Shown piece after piece: positions 38,806 through 64,000 of a DNA stretch of 64,000 nt. Numbering within the stretch: position 1 is the first letter of the stretch; each line of letters begins with the position of its first letter. The position numbers and the translations under genes are program-made. The stretch comes from an uncultured bacterium (lineage in GTDB: Bacteria > UBA8481), in the NCBI GenBank assembly GCA_964499705.1, contig CAZCME010000004.1, positions 1 to 64,000 on the forward strand, read 5' to 3'. The notes under the pieces were generated by a model that saw only the letters and a program-made list of their open reading frames with translations, searched no databases and was not told where the DNA came from.

Positions 38806-41800
38806 TCATCGGATCACCGCCACTTTACCGGTGACTCTTTGTCCAGTAGCCACATCCGTAACCACGTAGAGGTAGTAGCCGCTCGTGACCGGCTTTCCAT
38901 TGTCGTTGATGACGCCCCAGTTCACGGCGCCGTTGTTGTCGTTCTTGTTGATCTCGGTGATCTTCTCACCGAGGATCGTGTAGATCTCGATCCTGACCCG
39001 CACCGGCAGGTTCTTGAAGATGATACCCGTCGTCGCGTCTCCCGGCACCCATGCCCGGCCCGTCTGGTCATTGCCGTCGTTCGGCATGAACGGATTCGGA
39101 CCGACGAGGAGCGAATTGAGCCCGTTCGTCACGATGCCCGTGTCGTTGGTGACGAAGAACGGCGAGAAGTGCTTCACCGTTCCCGAGACCGTGTTGAGAT
39201 CCGGATCGCGGACGAGGTTCTGGAGTCTCTCCAGCTTGCCGTCGCCGCCGACCGTGTAGATCCTCGCCTTGGCCATGTCGACGAATGAGGAGTCGTCGAC
39301 TTCGTCATTGTTCGCGTCGATGTAGTTGATCGTGATCGTCGCGCCGGCGCCGAGGCTTGTGTCGTTGGTGTTCTGTTGAATCGAGAAGTTGGCGAAGTAT
39401 TTCGGAATCTCGCAACCCATCGCACGGATCTGGGTCTGAAGAGTTTCGCCCATACCGCCGCGCTGGAGCGAGCCGACAATCCTGGCCGTATCCGAACGCA
39501 ACGATCCGAAGTTGAGCTTCAGCACGATATCGAAGGCTCCCGTCGGCGTGCGCAACTGGAGAATGTCTCCTGTGGCACGCGTGGTGACCTGCTGCTCGAT
39601 AAAGGCCGTGTCGCTCGGCGTTGTGGAATCGCCGGGGTTGTATGTCGATTCGCCGTAGACCGTGAAGTACTGTGAAAGCGACGTGTCGGTTGTCAGAGGA
39701 TCGCTGTCGACGTCCTGGAACCCGACGACCGAGAAGCTGATGCTGCTGGCGTACGTGTCGCGTCCAACAGCCGTGATGGCGACCGCGCGGACTTCAAAGG
39801 AATCCACGACTGTGCCTGCACGAGCCTGAGCCGAGAGGAAGTTGGCGACATCTGTTTCCAGAATCGCCGAGTAGTAGACATCGCCCGCGTCGTCGTAGGA
39901 CGAGTCCGCGGTGGTTGAGAACGGATGGTAAACGAAGCCGGGCTCCACAAGCTTGCGGATGCCGAACTCGATGCCCGTGACCTGCGTTGCCGTCGTCTTG
40001 TCCGTCAGCTTGGCGACAAAGTTAATGCGGTTCCTTGCCGTCGGCGAAGCGAAGTTGAACCAGATCGCGTCCCCGGCATTCGGCGAAATCATCTGCGCCG
40101 AAGCGACCGGCGGAACCGAGAGCGTCGAGCGGAAGACCGCCGTGATAACGGGCGCCGCCGGGCTGGCATTGCCGGCCGAGTCGAACGCCTGCAGGGAGAA
40201 TCGATAGGCGGAATCCGAGAAGAGCTGCGCCGTCGAATCGGGCAGCGAGATGGTGTAAGCCAGCTGGCCCGAGACATGATTGACGGTCTTCAGGATCTGC
40301 TGCGGGTAGAGACCCAGGCCTGAATCCCAGAAGAGCACATACTTGCCGTTGGTCATGCCGGTGTCGCCGGATGGCGACGGACTCCACGTGATCGACAGCG
40401 AACCGGCATTGACCGTGATCGTGAAGTCGACCGGAGTGAGCGGAGCGATTGTATCGTTCGCACCTACCGCGAAGGACTCATAAGAGACCTCTTGGCCAGC
40501 TTGCGCCGTGACTGGACCGGATTCCATATAGGGACCCGTGCAGCCCATGGCGACGATCGATGCAGTGACCGTCGTGCACTGGGTATCCGAAACCTTGACC
40601 GTCACGCAAATGATGTATTCCTGCGTGTCGACCGTCGGGAAGAAGGGGGTCTCCGTGGAGAGCGTATCCGTGGAGAACCCGCGCGCACGCTCCGATGCTT
40701 CCGTAGAGGCCGCGTTGAGCGGATTGCGCGTGAGAGTCCAGAGATCGGACGTCGCGCTAACCGAGGTGAAGAAACCAACCAGCGTATCCGTCGCGAACTG
40801 AGACGAGTCTGCCGGGTTGACAAACCGTGACTCCCAGATTCTTGACCTGTTGAAGTCCTTGTAGAGCTGGACTGTGTCGATGCTGCCCGCCAGGCCGGCC
40901 GTTCCGCGGAGGCGGATGGTCATGCCCACGATGACAGCAGTCTCGAGATCGGCCTTCGGCACGAACCACATGACAGCCTTCGTCTCGCCGCGTTCGACAA
41001 GTCTCGTAACCGACGGGTGCGGCGGCTCCGTGTGGATGAAGAAGGAGTCGCGTCTGAAGGTGAAGACGCTGCCGACAGTCTGATTCAGAGCCGTGCCCGT
41101 ATCGCGGAACTTCGTCTTGATCGAGGAAGCCCAGATCTGAGGCTCGATCGTCGATGCCTGCGCGATCGTCTCCGCGACCTGAATCGTCACGAAGAATGTG
41201 TCGCTGGCCGCATCTCCGTCAATGGCGGAGAAGACTGTATCGATATTCAGGTGGCCCCACGTCTCATAAGTTGCTTCCGTGCCGAGCCGCGTCAGAACAA
41301 TCGTGCGGAGCGGCGCGCCGACGAGATTATTCGGCATCGTCATGGTGCAGGCGATGATGCTGGAATCCGCCGTCGCGGGCCGCACGAAGGTGACCTTGAA
41401 GACGCGGAGAGTGTCGCCGGTGACCTGGATGGTCGGCAGCGCGGAGCTGTCGCCATCGATCTTGCCGGAGAGCACCACGATCGGATTGGACTCCTGACCG
41501 CGGCTTCTCAGCCAGTTCGGATGCTGACGGATCGCAAGAACCGGGTGCACCCACGCCTGTGAGGCTCGCGTGTCAATGACCACTTCGGAACGTGGCGTCC
41601 CGAAGGTGATCGTACGTCCCGTCGCCGAGAAGACTCCGCCCAGCGGTGTATCCTGCGAGTAGTACGTGTTGATCGAGTCAGGCATCATCTGGAGCGTCAT
41701 CGTCGTATTTAGAGCGACGGACTCCGCGATCCGCACGTACACCGTGCAGTGCATCCAACCGAGGTACGGCAGCGGCGAATCGATGCGGTTGAAGAACCAG

Positions 41801-44800
41801 GCATTCGTATCGACACCGAGGCCGAATGTTCCATGCCGCGGCACGCTGATCGTGTCCTGGCCGCTCACGAAAGCGCCTGTCGAATCGGTGATGGAGAGAA
41901 CCATGTTCATGGCTTCGATCGAGTCGCCGAGCGATGTGCCGGAGGTTCCGGTGATCCGGAAGCCGATCCGGTTGATCCTGTCGACAAGTCCGACGGTCGA
42001 TGTCTGGCCGCGGAATCGTCCCTGGTAAAGGACGAACGGATTCTGGCCAAGACGCGAATCCGGATGAATCGTGGACGATCGCGTGTCGTCGTTGGTGATG
42101 AGAACGGTGTCGAGATACGCCCACCGGACGATCTTGGAGCAAGTCTGGTTGTTGGAGGAGCCAGTGGTGAAGAGCGATGTCGCGGACTCAATCTTGAGGG
42201 AAGCGAAGACTCCCATCATCGTCGTGGAGCTGTCGGCGCGGAGCATGACTCCGGTGTCGTAAGCCGTGACCCAGATGCTGAACCTGTGGCCGGAGTCGAT
42301 CGGCATCATGGCCTGGATTCTCCATGACTCCGTTCCCGCCACGCGGAGGAGCTGCGTTTCATAGGACGGGTAGAAGGTTCCCGAATCTCTACGCAGCGTG
42401 AGGATGATCGAGTCGTGCGCTGCATATGTGCCGAACCCAAGCTTCGAGTCAAGGCCGACCTGGAAGAAGCTGATGGTATCCTGCGGAACGTTCGCGACGG
42501 AGAATGAACCCTGCATGATGATTGTGGAGTCGTTCTGAGCGCGGAAGAGCTGAACGATCGAGTCGTTCAGGAAGTTCGCAGTGATGCCGAACGCCGGCTT
42601 TCCAATAGTGACGAGCCGCGATGCAACCGTGGCCGTCTCCTTACGGTTGGTGAGAACCGTCAGAGTCGAATCCCTTGGAATGGTCATGCGGAGCGTCGTG
42701 TTGAGAGCCGTCGTGTCGTAAATGTTGACGAAGACCGTGCAGGTCATGATCCCGTTGAAGTTGATGCGGGTATCGAAGAATCCGAGCCAGAAGTTCGAAT
42801 CCGTGCCCCACTGCCTTGTGTCATGGCCGTTAGCGGCCAGAGTCGGATCGGTCGCGCGATAGAGCGAGATCGAATCCAAACGCTGCTGTGTCGTGTCGTA
42901 CATGATCCAGACAGCCTTGACGGCGCCGTTTCCGAAGGAATCGGTCGCGAGCTGGCCCGCCCAGTCGAACTTGATGGTGACATGACGGAAGGTGTCGGAA
43001 ACTCCGAGTGCGGACGTCTGTCCCTGGACCTTGAAGACCATGGCTACGAACGGATTGAGGAGCGTCCTGGAATCCGGATGGACGTTCGTGTCCGTCAGAG
43101 CGCTGTCAGTGATGATGATCGTGTCCACGTAGTTGTAGCGGATCGACCGGCCCGAAGTGAGATTCGTTGCCGTGCCGGAGATGAACGCCACGTACGCCGA
43201 ATCGATGTAGCCGTTCAGCGATTTGCCAATCATACCGAGCGGCGTGTCATTGGCCGTCGGAATGTCGTCGACGACCACGCGAACCGCGAACCTCTGCGCT
43301 GAGTCGACGCGAATCTGGAACGGCAGAACGTAGGTGCACTGGAACGCCTGTGTCGAGATACGGGTGAGCTGGATATTCGTGTCGAGGACACCGCCGATCG
43401 TATTGAGCCAGACCGCGATCGATTCACCGCGGAAGCTGGTGTTGACCGTGTCTCTCACAATGACCGTGAATCCGAGCAGAGAATCCCCGTAAGCATCGGC
43501 GTTTGTGACCGCGAACTTGCCGGACATGATGATGGTCGACTCCGTCTGCACCGCGAACGGCGAGACGGTCGTATCGGTCAACACATCCATGTCGATGGCG
43601 AAGGTCGGCTTGTTGAGTGTTACGAGACGACCAGAGGACGTCGAAGTGAGCTTGCCGGCCGTGAAGACCGTGCGAGCGCCTGTCTCAACGCTTGTCCCCG
43701 TATCGCCCGCACGACCATAGCGCGATAGGACAACCTCGGAACGGAGCGACTTGTTGAGAGCCACTGTCTCCAGGACGTGAACCGTGATCGTGCAGCTGAT
43801 CGAGTTGCTCGCGGCGGACATGACCGTATCGAGGGTCAAACGCCATGTGGCGGAGTCGCGACGAACAAGAGCCCTGGTTTCCGTCAGGGTGCTGACATTC
43901 GCCCAGACTGCGACGATCGTGTCATTGACGCCGAAGACGAGGCCCGGTGTTGCCGAGCCGGTGAACATGAAGTCCGCGTGGCGGAACGTATCCCTGACAA
44001 GATTTCCTGATATATCCCTGTTCGTGGTCTGACCCTGGAAGGTCACAACCTGCGCAACGAACGGCGCCATACGCTGCCTGGAGTCAGGATGAATCGTCGT
44101 ATCTCCCAAGGCGCTGTCCGTGACCGTGATCGTGTCGATGTAAGCGAGGCGGATCGTCCGGCTGCAAGTGAGGTTACCCGCTGAGCCTTGAGCGAACTGG
44201 AGCGTGATCGAATCCGTCGGAATCGTCATCGTGAGATTCTCGCCGATGTAGTTGATCGGCGTGTCGTTCAAAACAACGCGGATCGTGAATGCTTGACCGG
44301 ATTCGATCTGCAGCTTCGTATCCGCGGGATTGGCGATGTGGCGCCAACCGTAGGTCGGCGAGGTCGAGTTCGCATTGACGAGCGTCAGCGTCGTCTCCGT
44401 GAATCCGACAAGCACGCCGGACTCAAGAACCATCTTGACCGAATAGGACTCGCCGCGCGTCGTGACAAGACCGTTCAGCTGAACGCCGAACGCCACGATC
44501 GTATCCGTCGGCGCGTAGGTCACCCTGAAGTTACCGGCCATCGCCACCGTGGAGTCATTCAGCAGCCGGAACGGCGGTACAGTCGTATCGCCCAAAACCG
44601 TCATCTGAACAGAAATTGCGGGCTTCTGGTAGGTGATGGTCCGGACGCCGAGAACCGTATGCGGCAGGCCGCCGGCAAGCGGGCGGGAGTCGCGCATGAA
44701 GAGCGTCTGGATCGAGTCGGAGAAGATCTCCGCGCGCAGTCGGGCGCCATTCGGAACCGTGTCCGGAACGTGGATCGTAACAATGAAGGTATCGCTGTTA

Positions 44801-47800
44801 TTCGACCCAAGAAGCGGCGAGTCAACGGACGCCGACCAGTGCCAGATGTTGTCACCGAGCGGAACGGCAGGAGACGCCGCGCCGCGGGTCAGAACGATCG
44901 GTCGTCCTGAATCGGAGAGATAGACAATGACGGAGTCGACGGCGTTGGCCACCGTGTCACCGGCGGTCGCGCTGAATATCCGGATGCCGAAGTAGATGAG
45001 CGAATCTCCGGCAATGTTGCGCCACTGCTGACCGGCGCTATCCGTGAAGATCGTCTTAGCGTTCTGGCCGTTAATGCGCCCCGCGAAAATTACGGGCGGC
45101 GTATCGGCAAGTCGAGAATCCGGATTCACATTGGTATCCGTATAAACGAGGCTCTGCGCGATCTGCGTCGTATCGGCAAATGTGAACGAGATACCAGCGC
45201 GAGTTGTCTCCGCGCCGGTCGCGCCCTTCCACGAACCCGTATCGCCAGCAAGACCGGAGGTAAATGTCGTGTTGACCGAATCCGCCGGAATGATGACGTG
45301 CACCGTGTCGCTCAGCCCGAGCCCGCGTGAATCGGCGAGTTGGCGGAGATAACGGGCCCGGAGGAATCCGGCGTTGTTCGTCGTATTCCGGAACGTGACG
45401 AAGATCTGGAAGGCCTGCGACTCGGAAATCGTCGTGTCCTGAACGCCCGTGCGGAGGCGGTAGCTGCGCGGAGAGATAGCGAGCGAGTCGAGGTAGATCG
45501 TGTCGCCGCTCGGCCGAGCCGAAGACGGCATCAGCTTCATCGTGACGACCGCGATCGAGTCCGCCGTCATGCCGGCGGGCAGCGAGTCGAACTCAATGCC
45601 GAAGTGCGTGAGCGTGTCGTAAGCCGGCATCGGAACAGGACCGACGTTCGTAAAGATAACACCGGAGCAGACTCGGATTCCGAGTCCTCCTCGACCGTCG
45701 TTGATGATCGCGAAGTTTCTGCTGTCAGGATCGGTCGAGATCGGATTGAAGAGAATCTCCCACGGAACATATTGCGTGTCCGGCAGCGTCCACATGCCGA
45801 GCGTGACCGGATCGGCGTTGATGAGGAAGATGCCGGAGGACTCGCCGATGAGCGGGCCGGGCGAGCTGAAGACGCCCGTGCAGCCGCGACCGACGACCCA
45901 GCAAGCGAGCGTCGTTCCGGTCGGCGTCGTGTCCATCAGCCTGATCCGAATCGCAAACGTGTCGCCCGAGCGAACCGTCGAGTCAAGCCCGGTGAGGAGC
46001 CACGTATCGGCTTTGATTGGAGCTACCGCCGCCAGACGCGTCATTGCCATCCACGGACCGAAGACTCCATTGCGCTTGAACTGCACTTCCGAAGAAGTGA
46101 CGGAGTCGCTGACCTGGTTGCCGCCCGAGGTGAATCGAATCATCAGCTCGCGGAACGTATCCTGGTCGATCTCGATCAATTGGCTGTCGATCGTGATGAG
46201 AGCGTCGAAAATCTTGGCTGGAATGATCTGGGACTGGATCGGGTTGATGGTGTCCGGAGCGAGCGTCGATGAAAGCTGGGCCGGTGTGCAACCAAGCGGC
46301 GGACGGAGCGTCGTCATGACGCGTCCGGAAGTCGTCTCGGAGCTCGGACCGCTGTCTCGGAAGAACGTGAGAATCGAATCCTGCGCCACGAAGAACTGCA
46401 CGGTCGCGGCATTTTGCAGGAGCGATGCGCTGTCGTTGAAGCTGATGTAGGCGCGGAAGTTGATGGTATCCTGCGTCTGTTTCAGAGTGGTGCCGTTGAA
46501 TGTCGCGCGGAAGAAATTGCCGTTCGCGGTCATGGCAGCCGTCTCGATCCCATCGATGACAAGTGCCACCGACTCCACATCCACCGCGCTGATGCCGCCT
46601 GTGTAGACGACACGGAAACCGAACTGACTCAATGTGTCTCGGTTGATTCCCGAGATCGTATCATCGTGAATATAACCCGCGACAACAAGATAGGAATCCC
46701 GGGTTAATGACCACGGATTCGCTCCAAAGAGGACGCGCGAATCCGGATGCCCGATATTCGCAGGAAGCGTCGTGCAGCTGACGATGACCTGCGACCGAAC
46801 GATCGAATCGATCGCCGAAGCGACCTCGTTGGCATTGCCCGCGACGCGACGGCGAGTCGTGATCGAATCGGCCTGTATGACCGCTTGTATCGTCTCATTG
46901 CGCGGCGCCGTATTGAGCAGCCGAACGTAGACGCGGTAAGTCTCGTAGGATCCGAGAGCAAAGAGTGAATCCACGTTGGTGATATACAGGCTGTCTCCGC
47001 CCTTGAAAGGACGAATGCCGGTATTGCCGATTTGAATCAAGGAGTTCGTCTCATCGACGAACGTCGCATTGATGCCCGGGCTGAATTTCAGCCGGACGGC
47101 GAAACTCGTCAGCGAGTCGGACGAAAGCGCGCCCACCTGTCCCAATACTCCGTTGGAAATGAGAGTATCGGCGTTTATGGTTCCGGCCAGGATCAGAATG
47201 GAATCGCTGACGCGAGAATCCGCGTGGACAAAACGGCGTTCGAGCGGCGAATCGGTGATAGCGATACGCGGCTGCACAACCGTTACGATGCGCGCAACTG
47301 TGAAGACAGAGGATGGACCGCTCTCGCGGAAGGCAGATGCGAAGGAATCGAGTTGAACCTGCGCCTGAATCGAACCGTTAGCCGTGTCAAACGTCCTCGC
47401 ATACAGACGTACCGTTGTCGTCCCCGTAATGGTCTGATTCACAAGATAGAGATACGTATCACCAAGAATAGTGCCCGGGGGATAGGACGTTCCATTAAGG
47501 ACAAGCGTTACCGTATCCACGTATCGTGAATCCATGCGCGGTCCAGCGAAGACCAAGCGCACGTTGACGCGCGCGATCGTGTCGTAGGGCAGCGCGGGGG
47601 TCAGGAGCGTATCGGCGTTGATGAAGAATTCCGCCAGTTGGACGGAATCTCCCTGAACGCGCGAATCCGCATGAACTGTAATGGCGGGCAGAACGGAATC
47701 CGTGAGCGCAATGCGTGGCTTGACAATCGTAACAACGCGGCTGAGAAGCATGTCCTGAGCCGGGCCCGTGTCACGGAATGCCGCCGCAATGGAATCTACG

Positions 47801-50800
47801 AGGATCTGGCCCTGGATCGTGCCGTTGACCGGCGCGAGATTGAAGGTGCGGACATAGACGCGCACCGTGGTCGTATTCGAAACAGTCTGGTTCGGGAGAA
47901 TACCGAAGGTATCACCCGTACGGCTGGACGTGACATACGGCGTGTTATCCACGACGAAGATAACGGTATCGATGTGCGTTGCCGAGACAAGACCGCCGCC
48001 GAGAATGAGGCGCGTCTGGAGACGGGTGATCGTATCGTATGGCAAAGGCGTCGTTAGCAGTGTGTCGGCAGCTACAAAGAATGACGCAAGGAAAATCGAA
48101 TCGTTCTGGATGCGCGTGTCGGGATGAATTCCGATGCTCGGCATCGCGGAATCCACCACAATGACACGCGGCTTCCGATATGTAACCGTGCGACTTGCCA
48201 AGAGCGACGAGTCCGGACCCGCGACGCGATAACGGGTGGTCACGGAATCCTGCAGGATTTGAGCTCTCAATGTGGCCAGATTGGGAACGGAACTCTCCGT
48301 GCGGATATAAATTCGGAAGCTTTCATATGTGCTCTGGCTAAACGCGGAATCTAGGCCCGGCGCTTCAATATAGTACGTGTCGCCGGCGCCACGCTTGGGC
48401 GTCCAGATTGTATTGCCGATCACGATCTGCGAGACCGTTTCTTTGACGTGCGCCGTGGTCATTCCGCCGGTGAAGATGAGCCGGAACGTAAAACCAGTCA
48501 GCGAGTCGGAAGGCAACGACGGCGTCAGGAGCGTATCCCTGTTGATCGTTCCGGCCATGACAAGAACCGAGTCGGTGACGCGCGTATCCGGATGAACAGT
48601 GACGTTGCCTAGCGTGGAGTCGGCAATTTCGACCCGCGGCTTGTTAATCGTGACCGTACGACTTCCCAATAAGGAAGAATCCGGACCGGCAACGCGGAAC
48701 CTTGAGGAGACGGAATCCTGGAGAATCTGCGCGCGGATCGTGCCGTTGACGGGCGTCGAGCTCTCCGTGCGAATGTAGACACGATAGCTTTCATACGTGT
48801 TGAAACTGAATCCCGAGTCAAGACCCGGCGCCTCAATGTAGTACGTATCTCCGGCGCCACGCTTCGGTGTCCAGATCGTATTTCCTATGACGATTTGAGA
48901 GGTTGTTTCGCTGATATTCGCCGTCGAGACGCCGCCCGTAAAGATGAGGCGGAACGTAAAGCCGGTCAGTGAATCGTTGGCAAGAATCGGCGTCAAAAGT
49001 GTATCTGCGTTGATTGTTCCCGCCAATATGAGGAATGAATCCGTGACCCGAGTGTCGGGATGAACCGCAATGTTCGAGAGCGCCGAGTCGGCGACCGTGA
49101 GCTTCGGCTTGTTGATGGTAACCGTTCGGCTGCCCAAGAGCGACGAATCCGGTCCTGCGACGCGATAACGCGTGGTGATCGAATCCTGAAGTATCTGAGC
49201 GCGAATCGTTCCATTGACGGGTGTGGAACTTTCCGTGCGAATGTAGATCCGGTAGCTTTCGTACGTATTCAGGCTGAACGCGGAATCAAGTCCCGGCGCC
49301 TCGATATAGTACGTATCGCCGGCGCCACGCTTGGGAGTCCAGACCGTATTGCCGATCACGATCTGCGACGTTGTTTCGCTGATATGCTGCGTTCCGACGC
49401 CGCCCGTGAAAACGAGACGGAAGGTGAACGCCGTCAGAGAATCCCTTGGAAGGATCGGCGTCAACAGCGTATCCGCGTTAATGGTTCCCGCCATGATGAG
49501 GAAGGAATCCGTAACGCGTGTATCCGGGTGCACCGCGATATTCGTCAATATGGAATCCGCCACGGTGACACGCGGACGGTTGATCGTCACGGTGCGGCTA
49601 CCCAAAAGCGATGAGTCCGGCCCCGCGACGCGATATCGGGTTGTCACGGAATCCTGAAGTATCTGAGCCCGGATTGTGCCGTTGATCGGAGTGGAGCTCT
49701 CCGTGCGAATGTAAATGCGGAAGCTTTCATAAGTGTTCAGGCTGAAGGATGAATCCAAGCCCGGCGCCTCGATGTAATATGTGTCGCCTGCGCCGCGCTT
49801 CGGCGTCCATACCGTATTACCGATGACAATCTGAGAAGTCGTTTCGCTGATATGCGCCGTCGTGACACCGCCCGTGAAGACGAGACGGAACGTGAATCCT
49901 CTCAACGAATCGGATGCAATGGAAGGCGTGAAAAGCGTGTCCGTATTAATGGTTCCGGCCATAAGAAGGAACGAATCCGTTATCCGCGTATCGGAATGAA
50001 CGGCAATGCTCGATAACGTGGAATCCGCAATAGTGACTCGCGGCTTATTGATGGTGATGAGCCTGCTGCCGACAACAGAGTCGGACGGGCCGGATGACCG
50101 GTATCGGAACGTTACGGAATCGATCGGCACAATGGCCCGAACCGTGCCGTTGATGGGCGCCGTCTCACGGATCGTGATTCGGATCGTATACGACTCCGCG
50201 ACGCCAAAGGACTGATTGATGACCGCGGTCAGATATGAGTCGCCTGAGGAAGCTGCAAGCGCGCCCGAGCTGTCGGCGGTAAATTCGGTCGCGCCGAGGA
50301 GCACTCCCACGGACTCGACGTCCAGATAGGACATACCGCCTCCGAATTGGAGGCGCAGGCCGAAGCGCTGGACGGAGTCGCCACCGAGCCGAACCTGCAA
50401 CAATGTGTCCGGTTGAATCGTTCCCACAGCAAGGATATACGGTGTCCCGGCGGCGCGCGAATCCGGATGCGCAATGATGTTCGGCAACGAGCTGTCATGC
50501 AGTGCGGCGCGGGGACGCGAGAATGTCACGACACCGGAGGAATCCTTGACCGTGGCATTGCCGCGGCGGAACTTGGATCCGACGGAGTCCACCGGTATCG
50601 TGCAGCCCACAAACCCCTGCAACGGGGGCGTGTCGGCCGTGACAACAACGCGGAACGTATCCACGCCGCCAGCGAGCGCGAGGATGACGGTCGAAATGTT
50701 GGGGGCATTCCAAGACGTCGTGCCGGCGGTTCTCGCCAGATCCACACGAACATCAGGAGTTACGGCCGAACCGACGATGAGCCAGGCGCTATCGATGTTG

Positions 50801-51630
50801 GCGCCGGCCGAACCGCCCATGTCCACTCCGAACTTCGCCAAGCTATCGCCACCCACCGTGCGAGTCTCTCCCTGGAGCGTTCCATGGAGAAGCGTGAACG
50901 GTGACTGTCCAGCGGCGCCGGAATCCTGGAACGCGAACTTGTTGCCGATAAACGGCGTCCCCGTCGAGTCGCTGTAGACGCGGAAGATGAAGGTATCGAG
51001 ATCTCTCTGGCCAGGATTGGGCTTCTGCGTGACGGTCGGACCGGCGGTATCCATCACAATCGTGACGCCGCGGTTCGGTATGCGAACAAATATGGTCGTG
51101 TCGTTCAAGCGCAGATTATTTTTCGTGTATACGACAATGACATACGATTCCGTGCCGGTGAAAAGAATTCTGCCGGCAGCCGGCTCGGTGACGATCAGAC
51201 TATAGTCGACCGTGGAGCCGGTATCGGCGACGGGCAATGTCTGCCTTGCGATCCGAGTGACGTCACCAGCATCGAACTGTTGGTTGTTGTTCGCGTCCAC
51301 ATAGAGGTCAACGGTATCGATAATGCTGGCGAAAGGAACAGAGTTAGGCGATTTGACGAATTGAATCTTAAAATCCGTAACCGTGTCGGGCACGCCGGCG
51401 GAACCGGAGCATCCGATCGCGCCCGCCGTGTTGAGGTAGAACTTCAGAATACCTCCGGGAACCAGGCCGGTGTCGGCGAAGGCGGCCGGAGGAGTTTTCA
51501 GAAGATTTGAATAGCTATCGCCGCGGATGACATCGCGGAATGCGGCCTGCGCATGCGCAGCCTGAGGCATCAGAGAAATAATTGCCGAAAGTATAAGTCC
51601 GTACGAAAAAACCTTGGCCGACATCTTCAT
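38806..51630 (-). CDS. Giant secreted repeat protein 2 (~4,270 aa), paralog of giant 1, with a T9SS-type C-terminal sorting domain
   Basis: Signal peptide ending AAHA-Q; same domain order as giant 1; C-terminal GPNPFMP...IYTILGEKI...WGV.NDNGKPVTSGYYLYVV...KVAVIR; SD GGGGTG before ATG 51630. Confidence 0.85.
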   Translation of the reverse strand: MKMSAKVFSYGLILSAIISLMPQAAHAQAAFRDVIRGDSYSNLLKTPPAAFADTGLVPGGILKFYLNTAGAIGCSGSAGVPDTVTDFKIQFVKSPNSVPFASIIDTVDLYVDANNNQQFDAGDVTRIARQTLPVADTGSTVDYSLIVTEPAAGRILFTGTESYVIVVYTKNNLRLNDTTIFVRIPNRGVTIVMDTAGPTVTQKPNPGQRDLDTFIFRVYSDSTGTPFIGNKFAFQDSGAAGQSPFTLLHGTLQGETRTVGGDSLAKFGVDMGGSAGANIDSAWLIVGSAVTPDVRVDLARTAGTTSWNAPNISTVILALAGGVDTFRVVVTADTPPLQGFVGCTIPVDSVGSKFRRGNATVKDSSGVVTFSRPRAALHDSSLPNIIAHPDSRAAGTPYILAVGTIQPDTLLQVRLGGDSVQRFGLRLQFGGGMSYLDVESVGVLLGATEFTADSSGALAASSGDSYLTAVINQSFGVAESYTIRITIRETAPINGTVRAIVPIDSVTFRYRSSGPSDSVVGSRLITINKPRVTIADSTLSSIAVHSDTRITDSFLLMAGTINTDTLFTPSIASDSLRGFTFRLVFTGGVTTAHISETTSQIVIGNTVWTPKRGAGDTYYIEAPGLDSSFSLNTYESFRIYIRTESSTPINGTIRAQILQDSVTTRYRVAGPDSSLLGSRTVTINRPRVTVADSILTNIAVHPDTRVTDSFLIMAGTINADTLLTPILPRDSLTAFTFRLVFTGGVGTQHISETTSQIVIGNTVWTPKRGAGDTYYIEAPGLDSAFSLNTYESYRIYIRTESSTPVNGTIRAQILQDSITTRYRVAGPDSSLLGSRTVTINKPKLTVADSALSNIAVHPDTRVTDSFLILAGTINADTLLTPILANDSLTGFTFRLIFTGGVSTANISETTSQIVIGNTIWTPKRGAGDTYYIEAPGLDSGFSFNTYESYRVYIRTESSTPVNGTIRAQILQDSVSSRFRVAGPDSSLLGSRTVTINKPRVEIADSTLGNVTVHPDTRVTDSVLVMAGTINRDTLLTPSLPSDSLTGFTFRLIFTGGMTTAHVKETVSQIVIGNTIWTPKRGAGDTYYIEAPGLDSAFSQSTYESFRIYIRTESSVPNLATLRAQILQDSVTTRYRVAGPDSSLLASRTVTYRKPRVIVVDSAMPSIGIHPDTRIQNDSIFLASFFVAADTLLTTPLPYDTITRLQTRLILGGGLVSATHIDTVIFVVDNTPYVTSSRTGDTFGILPNQTVSNTTTVRVYVRTFNLAPVNGTIQGQILVDSIAAAFRDTGPAQDMLLSRVVTIVKPRIALTDSVLPAITVHADSRVQGDSVQLAEFFINADTLLTPALPYDTIARVNVRLVFAGPRMDSRYVDTVTLVLNGTSYPPGTILGDTYLYLVNQTITGTTTVRLYARTFDTANGSIQAQVQLDSFASAFRESGPSSVFTVARIVTVVQPRIAITDSPLERRFVHADSRVSDSILILAGTINADTLISNGVLGQVGALSSDSLTSFAVRLKFSPGINATFVDETNSLIQIGNTGIRPFKGGDSLYITNVDSLFALGSYETYRVYVRLLNTAPRNETIQAVIQADSITTRRRVAGNANEVASAIDSIVRSQVIVSCTTLPANIGHPDSRVLFGANPWSLTRDSYLVVAGYIHDDTISGINRDTLSQFGFRVVYTGGISAVDVESVALVIDGIETAAMTANGNFFRATFNGTTLKQTQDTINFRAYISFNDSASLLQNAATVQFFVAQDSILTFFRDSGPSSETTSGRVMTTLRPPLGCTPAQLSSTLAPDTINPIQSQIIPAKIFDALITIDSQLIEIDQDTFRELMIRFTSGGNQVSDSVTSSEVQFKRNGVFGPWMAMTRLAAVAPIKADTWLLTGLDSTVRSGDTFAIRIRLMDTTPTGTTLACWVVGRGCTGVFSSPGPLIGESSGIFLINADPVTLGMWTLPDTQYVPWEILFNPISTDPDSRNFAIINDGRGGLGIRVCSGVIFTNVGPVPMPAYDTLTHFGIEFDSLPAGMTADSIAVVTMKLMPSSARPSGDTIYLDSLAISPRSYRLRTGVQDTTISESQAFQIFVTFRNTTNNAGFLRARYLRQLADSRGLGLSDTVHVIIPADSVNTTFTSGLAGDTGSWKGATGAETTRAGISFTFADTTQIAQSLVYTDTNVNPDSRLADTPPVIFAGRINGQNAKTIFTDSAGQQWRNIAGDSLIYFGIRIFSATAGDTVANAVDSVIVYLSDSGRPIVLTRGAASPAVPLGDNIWHWSASVDSPLLGSNNSDTFIVTIHVPDTVPNGARLRAEIFSDSIQTLFMRDSRPLAGGLPHTVLGVRTITYQKPAISVQMTVLGDTTVPPFRLLNDSTVAMAGNFRVTYAPTDTIVAFGVQLNGLVTTRGESYSVKMVLESGVLVGFTETTLTLVNANSTSPTYGWRHIANPADTKLQIESGQAFTIRVVLNDTPINYIGENLTMTIPTDSITLQFAQGSAGNLTCSRTIRLAYIDTITVTDSALGDTTIHPDSRQRMAPFVAQVVTFQGQTTNRDISGNLVRDTFRHADFMFTGSATPGLVFGVNDTIVAVWANVSTLTETRALVRRDSATWRLTLDTVMSAASNSISCTITVHVLETVALNKSLRSEVVLSRYGRAGDTGTSVETGARTVFTAGKLTSTSSGRLVTLNKPTFAIDMDVLTDTTVSPFAVQTESTIIMSGKFAVTNADAYGDSLLGFTVIVRDTVNTSFRGESIAVWLNTIGGVLDTNIQLTRISTQAFQCTYVLPFQIRVDSAQRFAVRVVVDDIPTANDTPLGMIGKSLNGYIDSAYVAFISGTATNLTSGRSIRYNYVDTIIITDSALTDTNVHPDSRTLLNPFVAMVFKVQGQTSALGVSDTFRHVTIKFDWAGQLATDSFGNGAVKAVWIMYDTTQQRLDSISLYRATDPTLAANGHDTRQWGTDSNFWLGFFDTRINFNGIMTCTVFVNIYDTTALNTTLRMTIPRDSTLTVLTNRKETATVASRLVTIGKPAFGITANFLNDSIVQLFRAQNDSTIIMQGSFSVANVPQDTISFFQVGLDSKLGFGTYAAHDSIILTLRRDSGTFYPSYETQLLRVAGTESWRIQAMMPIDSGHRFSIWVTAYDTGVMLRADSSTTMMGVFASLKIESATSLFTTGSSNNQTCSKIVRWAYLDTVLITNDDTRSSTIHPDSRLGQNPFVLYQGRFRGQTSTVGLVDRINRIGFRITGTSGTSLGDSIEAMNMVLSITDSTGAFVSGQDTISVPRHGTFGLGVDTNAWFFNRIDSPLPYLGWMHCTVYVRIAESVALNTTMTLQMMPDSINTYYSQDTPLGGVFSATGRTITFGTPRSEVVIDTRASQAWVHPVLAIRQHPNWLRSRGQESNPIVVLSGKIDGDSSALPTIQVTGDTLRVFKVTFVRPATADSSIIACTMTMPNNLVGAPLRTIVLTRLGTEATYETWGHLNIDTVFSAIDGDAASDTFFVTIQVAETIAQASTIEPQIWASSIKTKFRDTGTALNQTVGSVFTFRRDSFFIHTEPPHPSVTRLVERGETKAVMWFVPKADLETAVIVGMTIRLRGTAGLAGSIDTVQLYKDFNRSRIWESRFVNPADSSQFATDTLVGFFTSVSATSDLWTLTRNPLNAASTEASERARGFSTDTLSTETPFFPTVDTQEYIICVTVKVSDTQCTTVTASIVAMGCTGPYMESGPVTAQAGQEVSYESFAVGANDTIAPLTPVDFTITVNAGSLSITWSPSPSGDTGMTNGKYVLFWDSGLGLYPQQILKTVNHVSGQLAYTISLPDSTAQLFSDSAYRFSLQAFDSAGNASPAAPVITAVFRSTLSVPPVASAQMISPNAGDAIWFNFASPTARNRINFVAKLTDKTTATQVTGIEFGIRKLVEPGFVYHPFSTTADSSYDDAGDVYYSAILETDVANFLSAQARAGTVVDSFEVRAVAITAVGRDTYASSISFSVVGFQDVDSDPLTTDTSLSQYFTVYGESTYNPGDSTTPSDTAFIEQQVTTRATGDILQLRTPTGAFDIVLKLNFGSLRSDTARIVGSLQRGGMGETLQTQIRAMGCEIPKYFANFSIQQNTNDTSLGAGATITINYIDANNDEVDDSSFVDMAKARIYTVGGDGKLERLQNLVRDPDLNTVSGTVKHFSPFFVTNDTGIVTNGLNSLLVGPNPFMPNDGNDQTGRAWVPGDATTGIIFKNLPVRVRIEIYTILGEKITEINKNDNNGAVNWGVINDNGKPVTSGYYLYVVTDVATGQRVTGKVAVIR
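48170..50043 (-). repeat. Four highly similar tandem 468-bp (156-aa) repeats within giant protein 2
   Basis: The (K/R)P anchor falls at 50041, 49573, 49105, 48637 and 48169, an exact 468-bp period; each unit contains WTPKRGAGDTYYIEAPGLDS. Confidence 0.92.
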
Positions 51631-51807
51631 GAACTGATCACCCCGCTTTGCGGTTGGATTTTTCTTCTCGAGAGAAGAATGAGAGACCGAAGCGGGAGCA
51701 CGCATTATCGCACCGACGCTCGGTAATAGTATCGCCCGTAACAAATGCGCGCACGAAGGCACGCATCATCACAGACCATTAATTGAAACGAAGTTTCCCT
51801 CATAGTC

Positions 51808-60015: not shown

Positions 60016-60645
60016 TCATAGGAGGACACGCGGAGATCGTAAATCGCTCCTTCGAGCGAACGCCTCCTTCCAGTACATCCTGCCCGTGCGAAGGCAATGA
60101 TCCTCCCATTCCGACCTGATCTCCAGGTTCCATCCTTCTGAAAAGAGGAATGCCGGATGAGAGGCGATCGTCTCAAGAATGCCTCCGTGCAGACCCTCGT
60201 GATCGGTCATGATGTATATCCTCGAACCTGGCGGCATGAGCAGAGCCAGTTCATCGAGGAAGCTCGTGGAAAGCACTCTCCTCTTATGGTGACGTTTTTT
60301 GGGCCAGGGATCGGGAAAGAAAAGATAGGCGGCGTCGATGCGGCGGTTCGGCGTGAAATCGCGGATACGGCCGGCGATATTTCCCCAGAGGACATGAGCA
60401 TTCCGGAGCTGCGCGGCGCCGATCTTTTCCAGCAATTCCTCCACGAGAGGTTTTCGAACCTCGGTGCCGAGAATATTCATGCCCGGGCGGGTCCTCGCGT
60501 GTTCCAGGAGAAATCCGCCCTTCGACGCGCCCCATTCGATCGCCAGCGGCAGCGCCGGATCCGCGAAGACTTCATTCCATGCCGGTGGTTCCAGTCCTGG
60601 AAAAGTGCGCAGGGGGTTGGCGTGCGTGCGGATCCGTTTCTTCAT
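60016..60645 (-). CDS. trmB: tRNA (guanine-N7) methyltransferase
   Basis: RIRTHANPL, IEWGASKG, FPDPWPKKRHHKRR, TD, SEWE. Confidence 0.93.
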   Translation of the reverse strand: MKKRIRTHANPLRTFPGLEPPAWNEVFADPALPLAIEWGASKGGFLLEHARTRPGMNILGTEVRKPLVEELLEKIGAAQLRNAHVLWGNIAGRIRDFTPNRRIDAAYLFFPDPWPKKRHHKRRVLSTSFLDELALLMPPGSRIYIMTDHEGLHGGILETIASHPAFLFSEGWNLEIRSEWEDHCLRTGRMYWKEAFARRSDLRSPRVLL

Positions 60646-60665
60646 GAGTGTGTTATCATAGCAGG

Positions 60666-61076
60666 ATGTTCCGCCTTCGTGTCATTCTCTGGACGCTCGC
60701 CGCGCCGCTCGCGCTGCGCGGCGGAATAGCGCGCGCCTTCGACTGGTATCGTCCGCGTTCCGCCGGATCCGTTCACGACGCCCCTGAAAGGATCGTGGAG
60801 GCCGCGGACAAGATCCTCCTCTACCGTATCCGCGGCAGGCTTGTTTTCCGCACGCGCTGCTTGAAACGCACACTTGTCCTTTATCGCCTTCTCAGGGAGA
60901 GCGGCCACCCGGCAGTCGCGCATATCGGGCTCGGCCGGGGCGAGCACGGTTTCGACGGCCACGCCTGGCTGACTCTTCATGGCCGACGGATCGAGGATCC
61001 GACCTTCACTCCGCAGCGCGACTTCACGCCATTCCTGGAAATCGATGAGACCTCGAAGGAATTACGCGGCGCGTGA
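60666..61076 (+). CDS. Lasso-peptide B2-type leader peptidase (transglutaminase-like Cys protease)
   Basis: RCLKRTLVL..LL...G......IG.......GHAWL..G: Cys nucleophile plus HAW. Confidence 0.85.
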   Translation: MFRLRVILWTLAAPLALRGGIARAFDWYRPRSAGSVHDAPERIVEAADKILLYRIRGRLVFRTRCLKRTLVLYRLLRESGHPAVAHIGLGRGEHGFDGHAWLTLHGRRIEDPTFTPQRDFTPFLEIDETSKELRGA

Positions 61077-61999
61077 GCGAACATCTCTCGACCGACTTCC
61101 TGATCGCCGGTGTCCGGACGCGTATCTCATCCGACAGGAATGATCCTCCGTATTCGGCCATGATCGAGGATTTGAGCGCGATGCGAACGACGGATCCCGG
61201 CGAAGCCGAATGCGAACTCATGCTCCATCCGCGCGGCTGGGACGAGCCGTCTCCCCTGAAACTCCCCGCTGACGCAAAGCTTCTACGAAGCGGCGGGCGC
61301 AAAGTGTTCGAACATGACGGCGCATATTTCATCGATTTCCATGAAGAGGCTTTTTTTCAGCTTCATGCGGCACGCATGGAGGGTGTCTGCTATTGGGGGC
61401 CCGAACTCGATCCGATGTTCTGGACGGAAATCTGCCTGCCGTATGTTCTTGCGCTGCTCTTGCGCCGGCGCGGATTGTTTCTCCTGCATGCGGGCGGCGC
61501 CGTATCTCCGGATGGAACCGCGATGCTCTTCACGGGTCGAAGCGGGGCGGGAAAATCCACGACCGCGTTCCGGCTGGCCGAAGCCGGATGGACCTATCTC
61601 GGAGACGACATGGTCTTCTACGATGCGCATTACCGGATCCATGCCTTCCCGAAGCTCGCGGCGGCGACCGAATGGACGGTCGAGCGTTTAAAGCTGCTCC
61701 CGCGCGTGCTCAGAATTCGCCCCACGGGAAAAAGAGTCATCCGCCCATGGCTCGCGCCGGCCATGCCCCCGGAAAAATTCCGCATCTTCGCGCCGATTCC
61801 CGCAACTTTCGCAAAAAATTCCATCGCTCCCCTGGATCTGGATTCCGCGGTGGAAATTCTGTCCGGCCAGGCGCAGTTCTGCCACACGGATCATATCGTC
61901 GGCGGTCCCGCGCCCGATCTTGTCCCGCTGGCGGCGCGTACCCTCGAGATCAGGATCGGCGATCTCGCATCGCTTCCTGATTTTCTCGCGGCAATCTGA
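61073..61999 (+). CDS. HPr-kinase-like P-loop protein (putative peptide kinase)
   Basis: LHAGGA, Walker A GRSGAGKST, YLGDD; GTGA overlap with the B2 gene. Confidence 0.8.
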   Translation: MSEHLSTDFLIAGVRTRISSDRNDPPYSAMIEDLSAMRTTDPGEAECELMLHPRGWDEPSPLKLPADAKLLRSGGRKVFEHDGAYFIDFHEEAFFQLHAARMEGVCYWGPELDPMFWTEICLPYVLALLLRRRGLFLLHAGGAVSPDGTAMLFTGRSGAGKSTTAFRLAEAGWTYLGDDMVFYDAHYRIHAFPKLAAATEWTVERLKLLPRVLRIRPTGKRVIRPWLAPAMPPEKFRIFAPIPATFAKNSIAPLDLDSAVEILSGQAQFCHTDHIVGGPAPDLVPLAARTLEIRIGDLASLPDFLAAI

Positions 62000-62004
62000 C
62001 CGGA

Positions 62005-62931
62005 TCAGTCCGCTCCGAAAACCCGCATCAGCCGTTCCCGGGTCTGCGGAAACTGAAAAAACGTCGATCGTCGGCGGGAGCCCAGAGTCCAGGTCCACAT
62101 TCCTCGCGGAACCGCGGCATCATGTTCGATCGAGAAAGGAAATGCGTCTCCGGGAGAAACCGGCATGGAATCGACGGGAAAGAGCGTCCGGAACCAATGC
62201 TGTCCGGACCACGCTTCATCGGGTTTCTCCTCCAGGACAACGCCGGGCGAAAGCCGGGCCGACCACCAGGCAAGAACAGCGTTGCATTCGCCGGATCGAT
62301 CGGCCACCAGCGTGCAGGATCCGGAAAACCGGTCGCCCGTCGCCGTCATGAGATCGATCTCCGGCAGCGAGGACCCGGGGCCGAGCAGCATCGACGGCTT
62401 GAGATAATCGGGAAACGTGTAATGCTCCATGCATTCCGCCAGCGCGGAAAAATCGAAACCGTACCGCTTCTCTCGCCAGAAAGCCGCTGCCTTGGCGACC
62501 GGTACCGAATTCACGAGCGCCACGCGAAGTTGGACGGCCGACGGAATAACGATTCCTTCCTGCTTCAAGAATCGGCGCGCCGATTCCATGACGGAGATGA
62601 TTTTCTCGTCCAGGAGCATATTGCCGATCATTTCACAGACGATCGTATCGACGGGTTCGATGGCGGACGGATCCAGCTTCCTGATGTCGTCGTGAATGAA
62701 CCGGACATTCGATCCGTTTTTCCTCGCGACGGCGCGCGCATAATCGATCATGTCGCCCGCCTCCACGGCGACCACGTCGGCGCCAAGACGCTCCGCCGCC
62801 AGGGCGAGAATGCCGGTGCCCGTACCCACGTCGAGAACGCGGCTGCCGGGCCGCACGCGTTGCTTCAGCGCGGCGAGAAAGGCGTTCGTTCGCACCTCGT
62901 CGCTCAGCAGGGCGGCATGATATTCAAGCAT
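62005..62931 (-). CDS. PRMT-fold SAM-dependent methyltransferase
   Basis: HAALLSDEVRT, VLDVGTGTGIL, double-E loop CEMIGNMLLDE, FLKQEG.VIP, FW...YGFDFS arm, QHW loop. Confidence 0.85.
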   Translation of the reverse strand: MLEYHAALLSDEVRTNAFLAALKQRVRPGSRVLDVGTGTGILALAAERLGADVVAVEAGDMIDYARAVARKNGSNVRFIHDDIRKLDPSAIEPVDTIVCEMIGNMLLDEKIISVMESARRFLKQEGIVIPSAVQLRVALVNSVPVAKAAAFWREKRYGFDFSALAECMEHYTFPDYLKPSMLLGPGSSLPEIDLMTATGDRFSGSCTLVADRSGECNAVLAWWSARLSPGVVLEEKPDEAWSGQHWFRTLFPVDSMPVSPGDAFPFSIEHDAAVPRGMWTWTLGSRRRSTFFQFPQTRERLMRVFGAD

Positions 62932-62949
62932 GAGGATGAAGAAAGATGA

Positions 62950-63147
62950 TCAGGGCATAAGCCAGGGAGGGATGTCCATCGGCGCCGAAGCGCCTCCGCA
63001 TCGCCCACTCTGGCAATTGATCGAGCTCCGCGTTCCGCTCGGCTGCTGATACGTCTCGATCCCCGTGTAGGGAAGCTTGTACCGGGTCAAATGCGGCTTG
63101 AGATAGGCCTTGCCCTTGTTCTCGTGGCAGCTCTCCGTCTTTTTCAT
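62950..63147 (-). CDS. Putative RiPP precursor peptide (65 aa)
   Basis: SD GAGGT, ATGA overlap with the rSAM stop, YLKPHL (YxxPxL) leader motif, Ser/Gly/Cys/Arg-containing core. Confidence 0.7.
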   Translation of the reverse strand: MKKTESCHENKGKAYLKPHLTRYKLPYTGIETYQQPSGTRSSINCQSGRCGGASAPMDIPPWLMP

Positions 63148-63998
63148 GCGGCACCTCGGATGAAGACTCCGTTTATGATGTCGTCGCGACCGAGCCAAGC
63201 GGCGGTCACTTCGCAATGATGCGGAGCGGGGCGGTCATAATGCCCCGTCTCCTGAACAAACTGACCCATGCAACGGTAGCGGCACGAGGAAAGCATCGAG
63301 CACGATTTGCACGTGGAGATCTCCGTGCCTTTCTGCATCCGGATTTCATTCAACCTCCGCGAATTTCTCCAGACGTGCCGGAACGGAGTGTGCCGGATAT
63401 TGCCGACCGATTCGGGAACCTGCGAGCAGGGATACAAGTCCCCCAGCGGACCCACCGCGAACCTGCTCCACCCCATGTTGCACATCTCCGGATGATCCTC
63501 GTCGATGCAGGATGAAAATTCCGGGCGGCCCGTCCATTCCGTATAGCGACTCTCGCACTCCCGGATCTCGGCGGGCGTCAGGCGGTCCGCGAGAAACCCG
63601 TCGTTGCCGGAAACGAAACGGGGCGTGATGTGATACGATGGTGCGAAGATGGCGCCGGCTTCTTCGCAGAGCCTTCCCAGCTCCGTGATCGAATCGAAGT
63701 TCGTCCTCATAACCGACATCTTGACGATCGTCTTGATGCCGGCATCGACCGAAAGTTTCACCTTGGGAAACGCCCGCGCGAATGCTCCGGGCATCTTCAC
63801 GAACCGGTCATGCGATGCTCCCACTCCATGAATCGAAAAATGCAGCTCCTGGATTTCCTGCGACACGAGATATTCGATGTCCTCCTCGGAGAGGACCGTC
63901 CCGTTCTGAAATATCTCATACCGGAATCTCAAGCGGCAGGCTTCGCGGACAATCTCCCGCCAGCCGCGGTGAACAAGCGGTTCCCCGCCGCTGAACGT
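63144..63998 (-). CDS. Radical SAM/SPASM-domain protein, 5'-truncated by the window edge
   Basis: Frame open to the edge: FSGGEP, QNGT, SIHG...HD; SPASM C.MG.......G.LYPC...GN....F..VW...CKSC.....C...C. Confidence 0.9.
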   Translation of the reverse strand, partial: TFSGGEPLVHRGWREIVREACRLRFRYEIFQNGTVLSEEDIEYLVSQEIQELHFSIHGVGASHDRFVKMPGAFARAFPKVKLSVDAGIKTIVKMSVMRTNFDSITELGRLCEEAGAIFAPSYHITPRFVSGNDGFLADRLTPAEIRECESRYTEWTGRPEFSSCIDEDHPEMCNMGWSRFAVGPLGDLYPCSQVPESVGNIRHTPFRHVWRNSRRLNEIRMQKGTEISTCKSCSMLSSCRYRCMGQFVQETGHYDRPAPHHCEVTAAWLGRDDIINGVFIRGAA

Positions 63999-64000
63999 GA

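Follow-up and report, generated by a model that had tools for sequence, protein, structure and literature searches.

On balance, and with slightly better than even confidence, we propose that the single-copy PRMT-fold methyltransferase encoded in the window (the whole stretch of DNA analyzed, 64,000 nucleotides, G000:C4:1-64000) methylates the Arg-Gly repeat of a small precursor peptide, A2, in trans. We favor this reading because the fold and pocket of the enzyme appear intact and the RGRG[RG] motif is present in all eight A2 sequences vs. none of the 11 orthologues of A1, the precursor encoded beside the enzyme, and because the methyltransferase and the B2 leader peptidase are each single-copy and A2 occurs in all five genomes of the GTDB phylum (this genome, G000, and the remaining members, G001 to G004). 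It is weakened by the location of A2 on another contig, a mismatch at residue −2 of A2, the absence of the alpha-X helix and the variability of H245; because the five genomes are kin, joint presence of the genes in them is not independent evidence. The bolder form of the proposal, a phylum-wide system split between two loci, with a PRMT1-like enzyme dimethylating the RG-rich repeat of a ribosomal peptide using the motif and chemistry of eukaryotic PRMT1, is possible but rather doubtful.

Table 1. Features of the enzyme, its gene cluster and the distant precursor (positions are those of the window unless a contig is named).
Feature	Position	Strand	Remarks
PqqD/RRE gene	contig 64202-64498, outside window	(-)	PF05402 64.1 bits
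Radical SAM/SPASM maturase	63144..64000, running to contig 64205	(-)	353 aa; PF04055 64.1 bits, PF13186 43.4 bits
Adjacent precursor A1	62950..63147	(-)	65 aa; conserved gene, 11 orthologues
PRMT-fold SAM-dependent methyltransferase	62005..62931	(-)	308 aa, ATG start, no fused RRE, single copy in genome
N-terminal helix H5-T15 (H5, L8, D11, R14)	62887..62919	(-)	6cu3 alignment; invariant in 14/14 close homologues
Motif I, SAM-binding glycine loop, residues 32-40	62812..62838	(-)	6cu3 alignment and close homologues
Double-E loop, E100 and E109	62605..62634	(-)	both Glu invariant in 14/14 close homologues
Dimerization-arm-like stretch, residues 151-162	62446..62481	(-)	aligns with PRMT1 arm; helix-turn-helix in model
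THW-equivalent loop Q244-H245-W246	62194..62202	(-)	W invariant, H in 13/14 close homologues
HprK-like P-loop kinase	61073..61999	(+)	below-cut-off TIGR04352, TIGR04355, TIGR04249, PF07475; orthologue in 5/5 genomes
Lasso-type B2 leader peptidase, transglutaminase-like	60648..61076	(+)	NF033537 52.7 bits (cut-off 33), PF13471 50.8 bits
A2, precursor paralogous to A1	G000:C32:4581-4781		A1 profile over all small G000 ORFs, E 2e-13

Fold and genomic setting of the enzyme

Judged from sequence and model, the 308-aa ORF is a true PRMT-fold methyltransferase, and its start appears correct, given that orthologues share the same M-L-x-Y-H beginning. The Pfam PRMT_C domain (PF22528) matched residues 138-264 at 40.5 bits (cut-off 27), and the best rows among 71 sequence matches in the PDB were all eukaryotic PRMTs. 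In a phmmer comparison, residues 5-266 matched Naegleria PRMT1 (6cu3; E 3.9e-26), and the His helix, double-E loop, arm and His-Trp loop all fell in register. The N-terminal helix, motif I, double-E loop, motif III, arm-like stretch and QHW loop named in the first-pass annotation were all found where it had placed them, aligning column for column with 6cu3. An AlphaFold2 model built on a 22-row alignment (pLDDT 93.9) comprised a Rossmann domain, an arm and the beta-barrel that the earlier assignment to the PRMTs implied, and its top Foldseek match was PRMT3 (2fyt, TM 0.85). When the model was compared with 48,161 chains using VIA-align, ranks 1-15 were all eukaryotic PRMTs (Z 30.6 to 22.8), the best row having an rmsd of 2.0 over 287 residues, and Z dropped to 14.3 at rank 16, PrmA, with 137 residues aligned. 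Identity with PrmA, the L11 lysine methyltransferase, was rejected on this partial structural alignment and on a score of 57 bits vs. an equivalog cut-off of 269.

Each of the five phylum genomes contained one PRMT match, and a plasmid search returned four distant matches. DNA contigs from three sequencing runs overlay the stretch piecewise; one piece (62055-63317), possibly from the source sample, did so without differences.

By gene content and order, the enzyme sits in a conserved RiPP-type context. A cluster of six genes, encoding PqqD, the radical SAM/SPASM maturase, the precursor, the PRMT, the HprK-like kinase and the B2 protease, had all its members in every one of the five genomes; the arrangement was unbroken in G002, G003, and G004 and divided between two contig ends in G001. 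The order PqqD-rSAM-A1-PRMT on a single strand was found in all five, with the linkage kept across two families. In the present genome the pqqD, radical SAM and A1 genes follow one another with successive four-base overlaps on the (-) strand, and the kinase and PRMT genes are convergent with a 5-base gap. The B2 protease was likewise present as one copy in each genome. The locus therefore has the elements by which RRE-dependent RiPP clusters are recognized: a conserved small precursor with an RRE motif, an RRE, a maturase and a leader protease. The peptide precursor that had been noticed beside the enzyme is a real gene, conserved beyond this genome.

Some members of the cluster are named more loosely than others. 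The term "HprK-like" reflects matches below cut-off, and the radical SAM/SPASM maturase passed no named family cut-off among its 25 best NCBIfam rows. No lasso cyclase (Asn-synthetase-like) was found among the genes flanking the cluster, and the eight PF00733 matches in G000 were all on other contigs; membership in a lasso peptide cluster was rejected on the lack of a cyclase in the cluster, with cyclase action in trans still conceivable. An NTP_transf_5 gene (G000:C3:212844-213440) occurs once in each of the five genomes, unlinked to the cluster, and genes of this family flank the PRMT in nine unrelated loci.

Several further features of the surroundings were recorded. A tRNA-Leu(CAA) gene (L001:4621-4706) lies close upstream of pqqD and is encoded on the other strand, and a 573-aa ORF with no Pfam match (L001:4663-6384) ends within it. 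The trmB and B2 genes have divergent starts within about 20 bases of each other (60645-60666), leaving scant room for promoters. Elsewhere in the window, a 4318-aa ORF (38806-51762, (-) strand) has internal repeats and a likely signal peptide.

The arginine pocket and its fate among bacterial relatives

The Arg pocket of PRMT1 is formed by the double-E and THW loops (PMC8619983). In the enzyme, for which PRMT1 residue numbering was taken from the alignment, E100 and E109 are nine residues apart and align with the PRMT1 Glu pair, and the Arg-binding pocket is predicted from its sequence to be intact. Across a wider alignment of 192 homologues, Glu was found at the E100 position in 165 and at the E109 position in 151, with His at H245 in 120 and Trp at W246 in 182. 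Two clade members have Ser or Leu in place of H245, Ser being found in locus L024.

The first-pass annotation had credited the enzyme with the full eukaryotic PRMT motif set, which holds for the motifs that it named but not for the alpha-X helix. The alpha-X Y/F-x-x-Y motif, which in type I PRMTs orders or coordinates the second of the two Glu (PMC9469100), was absent from the enzyme and nearly all of its close homologues; the N-terminus begins only four residues ahead of H5, and the enzyme thus lacks that helix. At the PRMT1 Met48 and Met155 positions, which serve as a second type I signature, the enzyme has Leu8 (Leu in all 14 close homologues) and Ile111 (variable among homologues), and the Phe that PRMT5 (type II) carries at the M48 position is likewise replaced by Leu8. 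Given that both type I signatures are lacking, we treat the enzyme as a member of the PRMT structural family and do not file it as a type I PRMT. Its product is probably mono- or asymmetric dimethyl-Arg. Symmetric dimethyl-Arg is the less likely outcome, since Leu rather than Phe occupies the position equivalent to M48; in PRMT1, M48L changes the MMA/ADMA ratio with no SDMA, and M48F is the switching mutation (PMC8619983).

From sequence and model we infer that the enzyme works like PRMT1 chemically. Following established PRMT chemistry, SAM would be bound in the Rossmann domain at motif I, and the guanidinium would be clamped between E100 and E109, with H245 alongside, for transfer of the methyl group to a terminal nitrogen. 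If active, the enzyme would offer a minimal PRMT, devoid of the alpha-X helix, in which product specificity could be studied.

A profile search with the enzyme returned 1,420 clusters at E below 1e-30, unlabeled and including some eukaryote-like rows. Near full-length relatives were found in two of the 80 genome loci and one of the 80 metagenome loci listed, the rest being generic methyltransferases; the closest named genome relative among the matches listed (L029) shared 44% identity. A wider profile matched 25 of 396 unrelated genomes at E below 1e-35, in 29 places. We analyzed 23 of these, omitting three very long ORFs, two second partial matches and one contig-end match, and scanned their nearer neighbors. 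Eleven loci were of RiPP type, with PqqD, HprK-like, NTP_transf_5 or lasso-cyclase neighbors (two more had only an HprK-like match), and 12 had no clear RiPP cluster, with neighbors including FHA/TPR, RelA or B12-radical SAM genes.

The second Glu and the His were lost in nine of the 11 RiPP-type loci, and the pocket was kept in L209 and L026 (E/E and E/D, respectively). Candidate precursors, called by pattern and eye, were found in nine of these loci and contained Arg in 2/2 cases with an intact pocket vs. 1/7 with a decayed one (in the core, in L211), a weak contrast with a Fisher p of 0.083 across loci that are not independent, as the decayed enzymes belong mostly to two clades. To judge by these comparisons, pocket decay tends to go with Arg being dispensable, and in the enzyme's own clade the pocket appears not to have decayed.

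An intact pocket alone is no pointer to a peptide substrate, because both Glu were kept in nine of the 10 non-RiPP loci (out of 12) that were aligned. This retention, together with the 12 of 23 unrelated loci that stand outside any clear RiPP cluster, keeps alive a reading in which the enzyme methylates arginine in RG-rich proteins of the cell generally and sits in the operon for historical reasons; five other called ORFs in G000 contain RGRG[RG], one of which encodes a 522-aa PF00006 ATPase that is Rho-like by its layout. We nevertheless consider such a role quite unlikely for this enzyme, as its tight linkage to PqqD, radical SAM and precursor genes is kept across two families and the repeat is supplied by a small conserved peptide with an RRE leader motif.

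A quick tree, from which L227, L228, and L031 were omitted as partial or mis-called ORFs, gave the phylum clade of the enzyme a support of 100. The position of that clade was unsettled, and we therefore make no claim on closeness to eukaryotic PRMTs or on gene transfer. Among the unrelated loci, the L026 cluster combines radical SAM, PqqD, HprK-like, PRMT (E/D, His-Trp) and NTP_transf_5 genes with a 90-aa peptide (L026:2922-3191) bearing Arg-Gly-rich repeats. PRMT-fold domains were also seen in open frames of 4367, 4363, and 1499 aa (G392:C47, G246:C49, and G223:C28), perhaps embedded in NRPSs. At L222:4773-8627, an intact-pocket PRMT shares an operon with TPR and double-FHA genes, which suggests a use in signaling.

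Candidate substrates in the adjacent and distant precursors

The 11 distinct A1 orthologues have in common a [YW]xxPx[LV] leader motif, Tyr-Gln, two Cys and a Pro-x-Trp-x-x-Pro tail; the copy in this genome has a YxxPxL leader, Ile at −2 of the lasso register, a two-Cys core and the same tail. Arg was found in only four of the 11 cores, at non-equivalent places, which counts against Arg methylation of A1 as a conserved function; seven cores are Arg-free, and three have neither Arg nor Lys. The single near-invariant Arg lies in the leader and was rejected as a target because it would be removed by cleavage and is Lys in P0237. A1 is thus probably not a conserved Arg substrate, as far as its sequences allow us to judge. 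The suggestion that the enzyme is a RiPP-tailoring Arg N-methyltransferase accordingly stands with respect to the PRMT fold, the predicted pocket and the conserved RiPP context but finds no conserved Arg target in the adjacent precursor.

The A1 and PRMT genes are adjacent and co-oriented, and the core holds two Arg in this genome, three in its closest relative (P0239) and a Gly-Arg-Gly in P0235, all of which could be taken to mean that Arg methylation in the A1 core is the main job of the enzyme. This is very unlikely, given that both enzyme Glu are kept in every kin genome despite the prevalence of Arg-free cores, that the enzyme is equally conserved with Arg-free A1 in G001-G003, and that the near-invariant Arg is confined to the leader. 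The two core Arg of the present A1 are lineage-specific and may serve as side substrates.

A further alternative is that the enzyme acts on a site of A1 other than Arg: in the simplest case the N-terminal amine newly exposed by B2, or else another amine or a phospho-group. With YxxPxL at −17 to −12 of the lasso register, residue −2 of A1 is Ile or Val in 11/11, the signature described for Bsf-type B2 proteases (PMC10368454), and the cluster has no lasso cyclase that would consume the freed amine. The conserved one-strand gene order in all five genomes fits this alternative, as does the frequency of alpha-N-methylation among RiPP N-methylations (PMC10373908), and PRMT-fold relatives in Arg-free clusters show that the fold can be reused. 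Those reused relatives, however, lost the second Glu and the His, whereas both Glu are kept in all 14 members of the enzyme's clade; in addition, A1 sequences differ in their predicted first core residue (T, S, E, F), and the invariant A2 repeat is left unexplained. We therefore regard a non-Arg target on A1 as unlikely. All other explanations taken together seem highly improbable.

A2, the substrate that we prefer, was the only other strong match when the A1 profile was run over all small ORFs in G000; the next-best match had an E of 0.26. Each of the five phylum genomes has a single copy of A2, and none was found in the 396 unrelated genomes searched. Our set of eight distinct sequences came from the five genomes and a database search (four returned, one identical to the G004 copy). 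All eight have YxxPxL, Tyr and two Cys and end in Pro-Pro-Pro-Trp-Gly; behind the second Cys all have RGRG[RG], the classic PRMT1 motif; PRMT1 prefers RGG/RG or RXR sites (PMC8619983). The A1 and A2 profiles detect each other at E 1e-8 to 1e-12, and the leader motif, the Tyr, the two Cys and a Pro-Trp tail are common to both. The repeat appears to be kept as protein, since synonymous codons differ across the five genomes and GC content of the locus ranges from 0.40 to 0.64. The roughly called genes of G000, 1.33 million residues in all, contained RGRG[RG] five times, or ∼1e-4 per 35-residue window, a figure that is a guide and not a test because the motif was picked after being seen.

The A2 locus lies apart from the PRMT cluster, with PqqD, PRMT and B2 all absent from the neighbors examined. 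In the fixed lasso register, residue −2 of A2 is Ile, Val or Thr in only one of eight sequences, in contrast to A1. B2 cleavage of A2 may therefore not follow the A1 pattern, and A2 may be cut elsewhere or left uncut. A complex prediction that combined a pair of enzyme chains with SAH and residues 33-67 of A2, its core, scored 0.19 against a mark of 0.32 and, with its controls not folded, weighs neither way.

Methylation of A2 in trans would make this a two-locus RiPP-type system, with PqqD/RRE, radical SAM/SPASM, kinase, B2, PRMT and A1 at locus 1 and A2 at locus 2. Based on gene content, PqqD would bind either leader, A1 or A2; the radical SAM enzyme would probably cross-link the A1 Cys, the kinase would phosphorylate a Ser/Thr, and B2 would remove the A1 leader. 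The PRMT-fold enzyme would methylate at least one Arg in the A2 repeat. On the bolder reading, the kinase at locus 1 and a possibly decayed phosphatase-like protein at locus 2 would suggest a signaling peptide rather than an antibiotic.

The latter protein is encoded by a fast-evolving ORF that follows A2 in all five genomes (L248:1715-2296; L249-L252), with one weak SpoIIE/PP2C match (E 0.018); from its sequence it is possibly a pseudo-phosphatase. Just ahead of A2 in G000-G003 is a conserved, truncated "mini" radical SAM-like ORF of 169-191 aa with an intact CxxxCxxC and no SPASM (L248:958-1464, equivalent to G000:C32:4059-4565; also L249, L251, and L252), which is absent at that place in G004. 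In G000, this ORF and A2 stand behind ksgA. Spacing of the two Cys also varies: the A1 of this genome has Cys-x4-Cys, like the A2 of G004 (L250:1498-1722), most A1 have Cys-x5-Cys and the remaining A2 have Cys-x6-Cys, and exchange between paralogues is possible.

Relation to known systems

The enzyme resembles the eukaryotic type I PRMTs (PRMT1, PRMT3; 6cu3, 2fyt) in its catalytic core, motifs I to III, double-E loop, His-Trp loop and arm, and its candidate substrate A2 has their RG motif. It differs from them in sharing only about 25-28% identity, in lacking the alpha-X aromatic helix, in having Leu/Ile at M48/M155 and QHW for THW, and in its location in a bacterial peptide-maturation operon. 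Bacterial PRMTs as such are not new: PRMTs of unknown function have been predicted in Legionella (PMC10117894), and bacterial sister groups of PRMTs in secondary-metabolite operons have been published (PMC3417536, citing Aravind et al., 2011). Those sister groups share with our enzyme the bacterial PRMT fold and a peptide natural-product setting; as described in the passages of that paper drawn on here, their neighbors are NRPS, dioxygenase and amine-oxidase genes rather than RRE, radical SAM and B2, and those passages name no RG-repeat substrate. The distinctive points of the present case are an intact pocket, an Arg-poor neighbor, A1, and a distant paralogue, A2, with an invariant RG repeat.

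Of the known peptide clusters, the kinase-bearing lasso cluster bsf of Bradymonas sediminis (PMC10368454) is similar in its YxxPxL at −17 to −12, its Ile/Val at −2 (as in A1), its separate RRE, its B2 and its HprK-like kinase. Our cluster differs in having no lasso cyclase or transporter among the flanking genes examined, a radical SAM/SPASM and a PRMT gene instead, and an unlinked nucleotidyltransferase. Ranthipeptides, as represented by freyrasin (PapA/PapB; PMC9413430), likewise pair a radical SAM/SPASM enzyme with an RRE, and most A1 orthologues have the corresponding Cys-x3-Asp/Glu (Cys-x3-Asp in 9/11, Cys-x3-Glu in 7/11); by contrast, the A1 of this genome and all A2 have neither, and the maturase scored 56.9 bits vs. 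a PapB cut-off of 340. The SynChlorMet/GeoRSP cassettes (TIGR04248-04251, TIGR04303) also combine PqqD, HprK-like and radical SAM/SPASM genes, and identity with them was rejected on scores far below cut-off (ScmE 110.9 vs. 400; GeoRSP 97.6 vs. 400; ScmC 25.1 vs. 125).

Eukaryotic PRMTs have been proposed to derive from bacterial peptide methylases (PMC3417536). For that proposal, a bacterial enzyme whose peptide substrate is defined would be required, and the present locus offers a candidate pair: a 308-aa enzyme and a 60-75-aa peptide with a textbook RG repeat, a pairing that is specific and wholly inferred. If it is true, guanidino (N-omega-Arg) methylation would join RiPP chemistry, and an origin of RG-motif recognition within peptide pathways of bacteria would gain evidence. 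A review of RiPP methylations covers, in the portion relevant here, alpha-N-, O-, C- and ornithine methylation and refers to Arg side chains only in a general remark about peptides, giving no example from RiPPs (PMC10373908). In our search of mostly open-access literature, neither the action of a PRMT in a RiPP pathway nor RiPP Arg methylation was found to be reported, and genome-mining supplements may already list such clusters. For genome mining, the locus carries the caution that a precursor beside a tailoring enzyme may not be its substrate; Arg-to-Lys variants of A1 alone would miss the likelier substrate, A2.

Two more Cys-rich peptides with YxxPxL-type leaders (G000:C10:63336-63557 and G000:C13 near 70,000-70,200) are encoded behind radical SAM genes of their own. 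Their C-terminal parts are Arg-free, and they may share the PqqD and the single B2 of the cluster.
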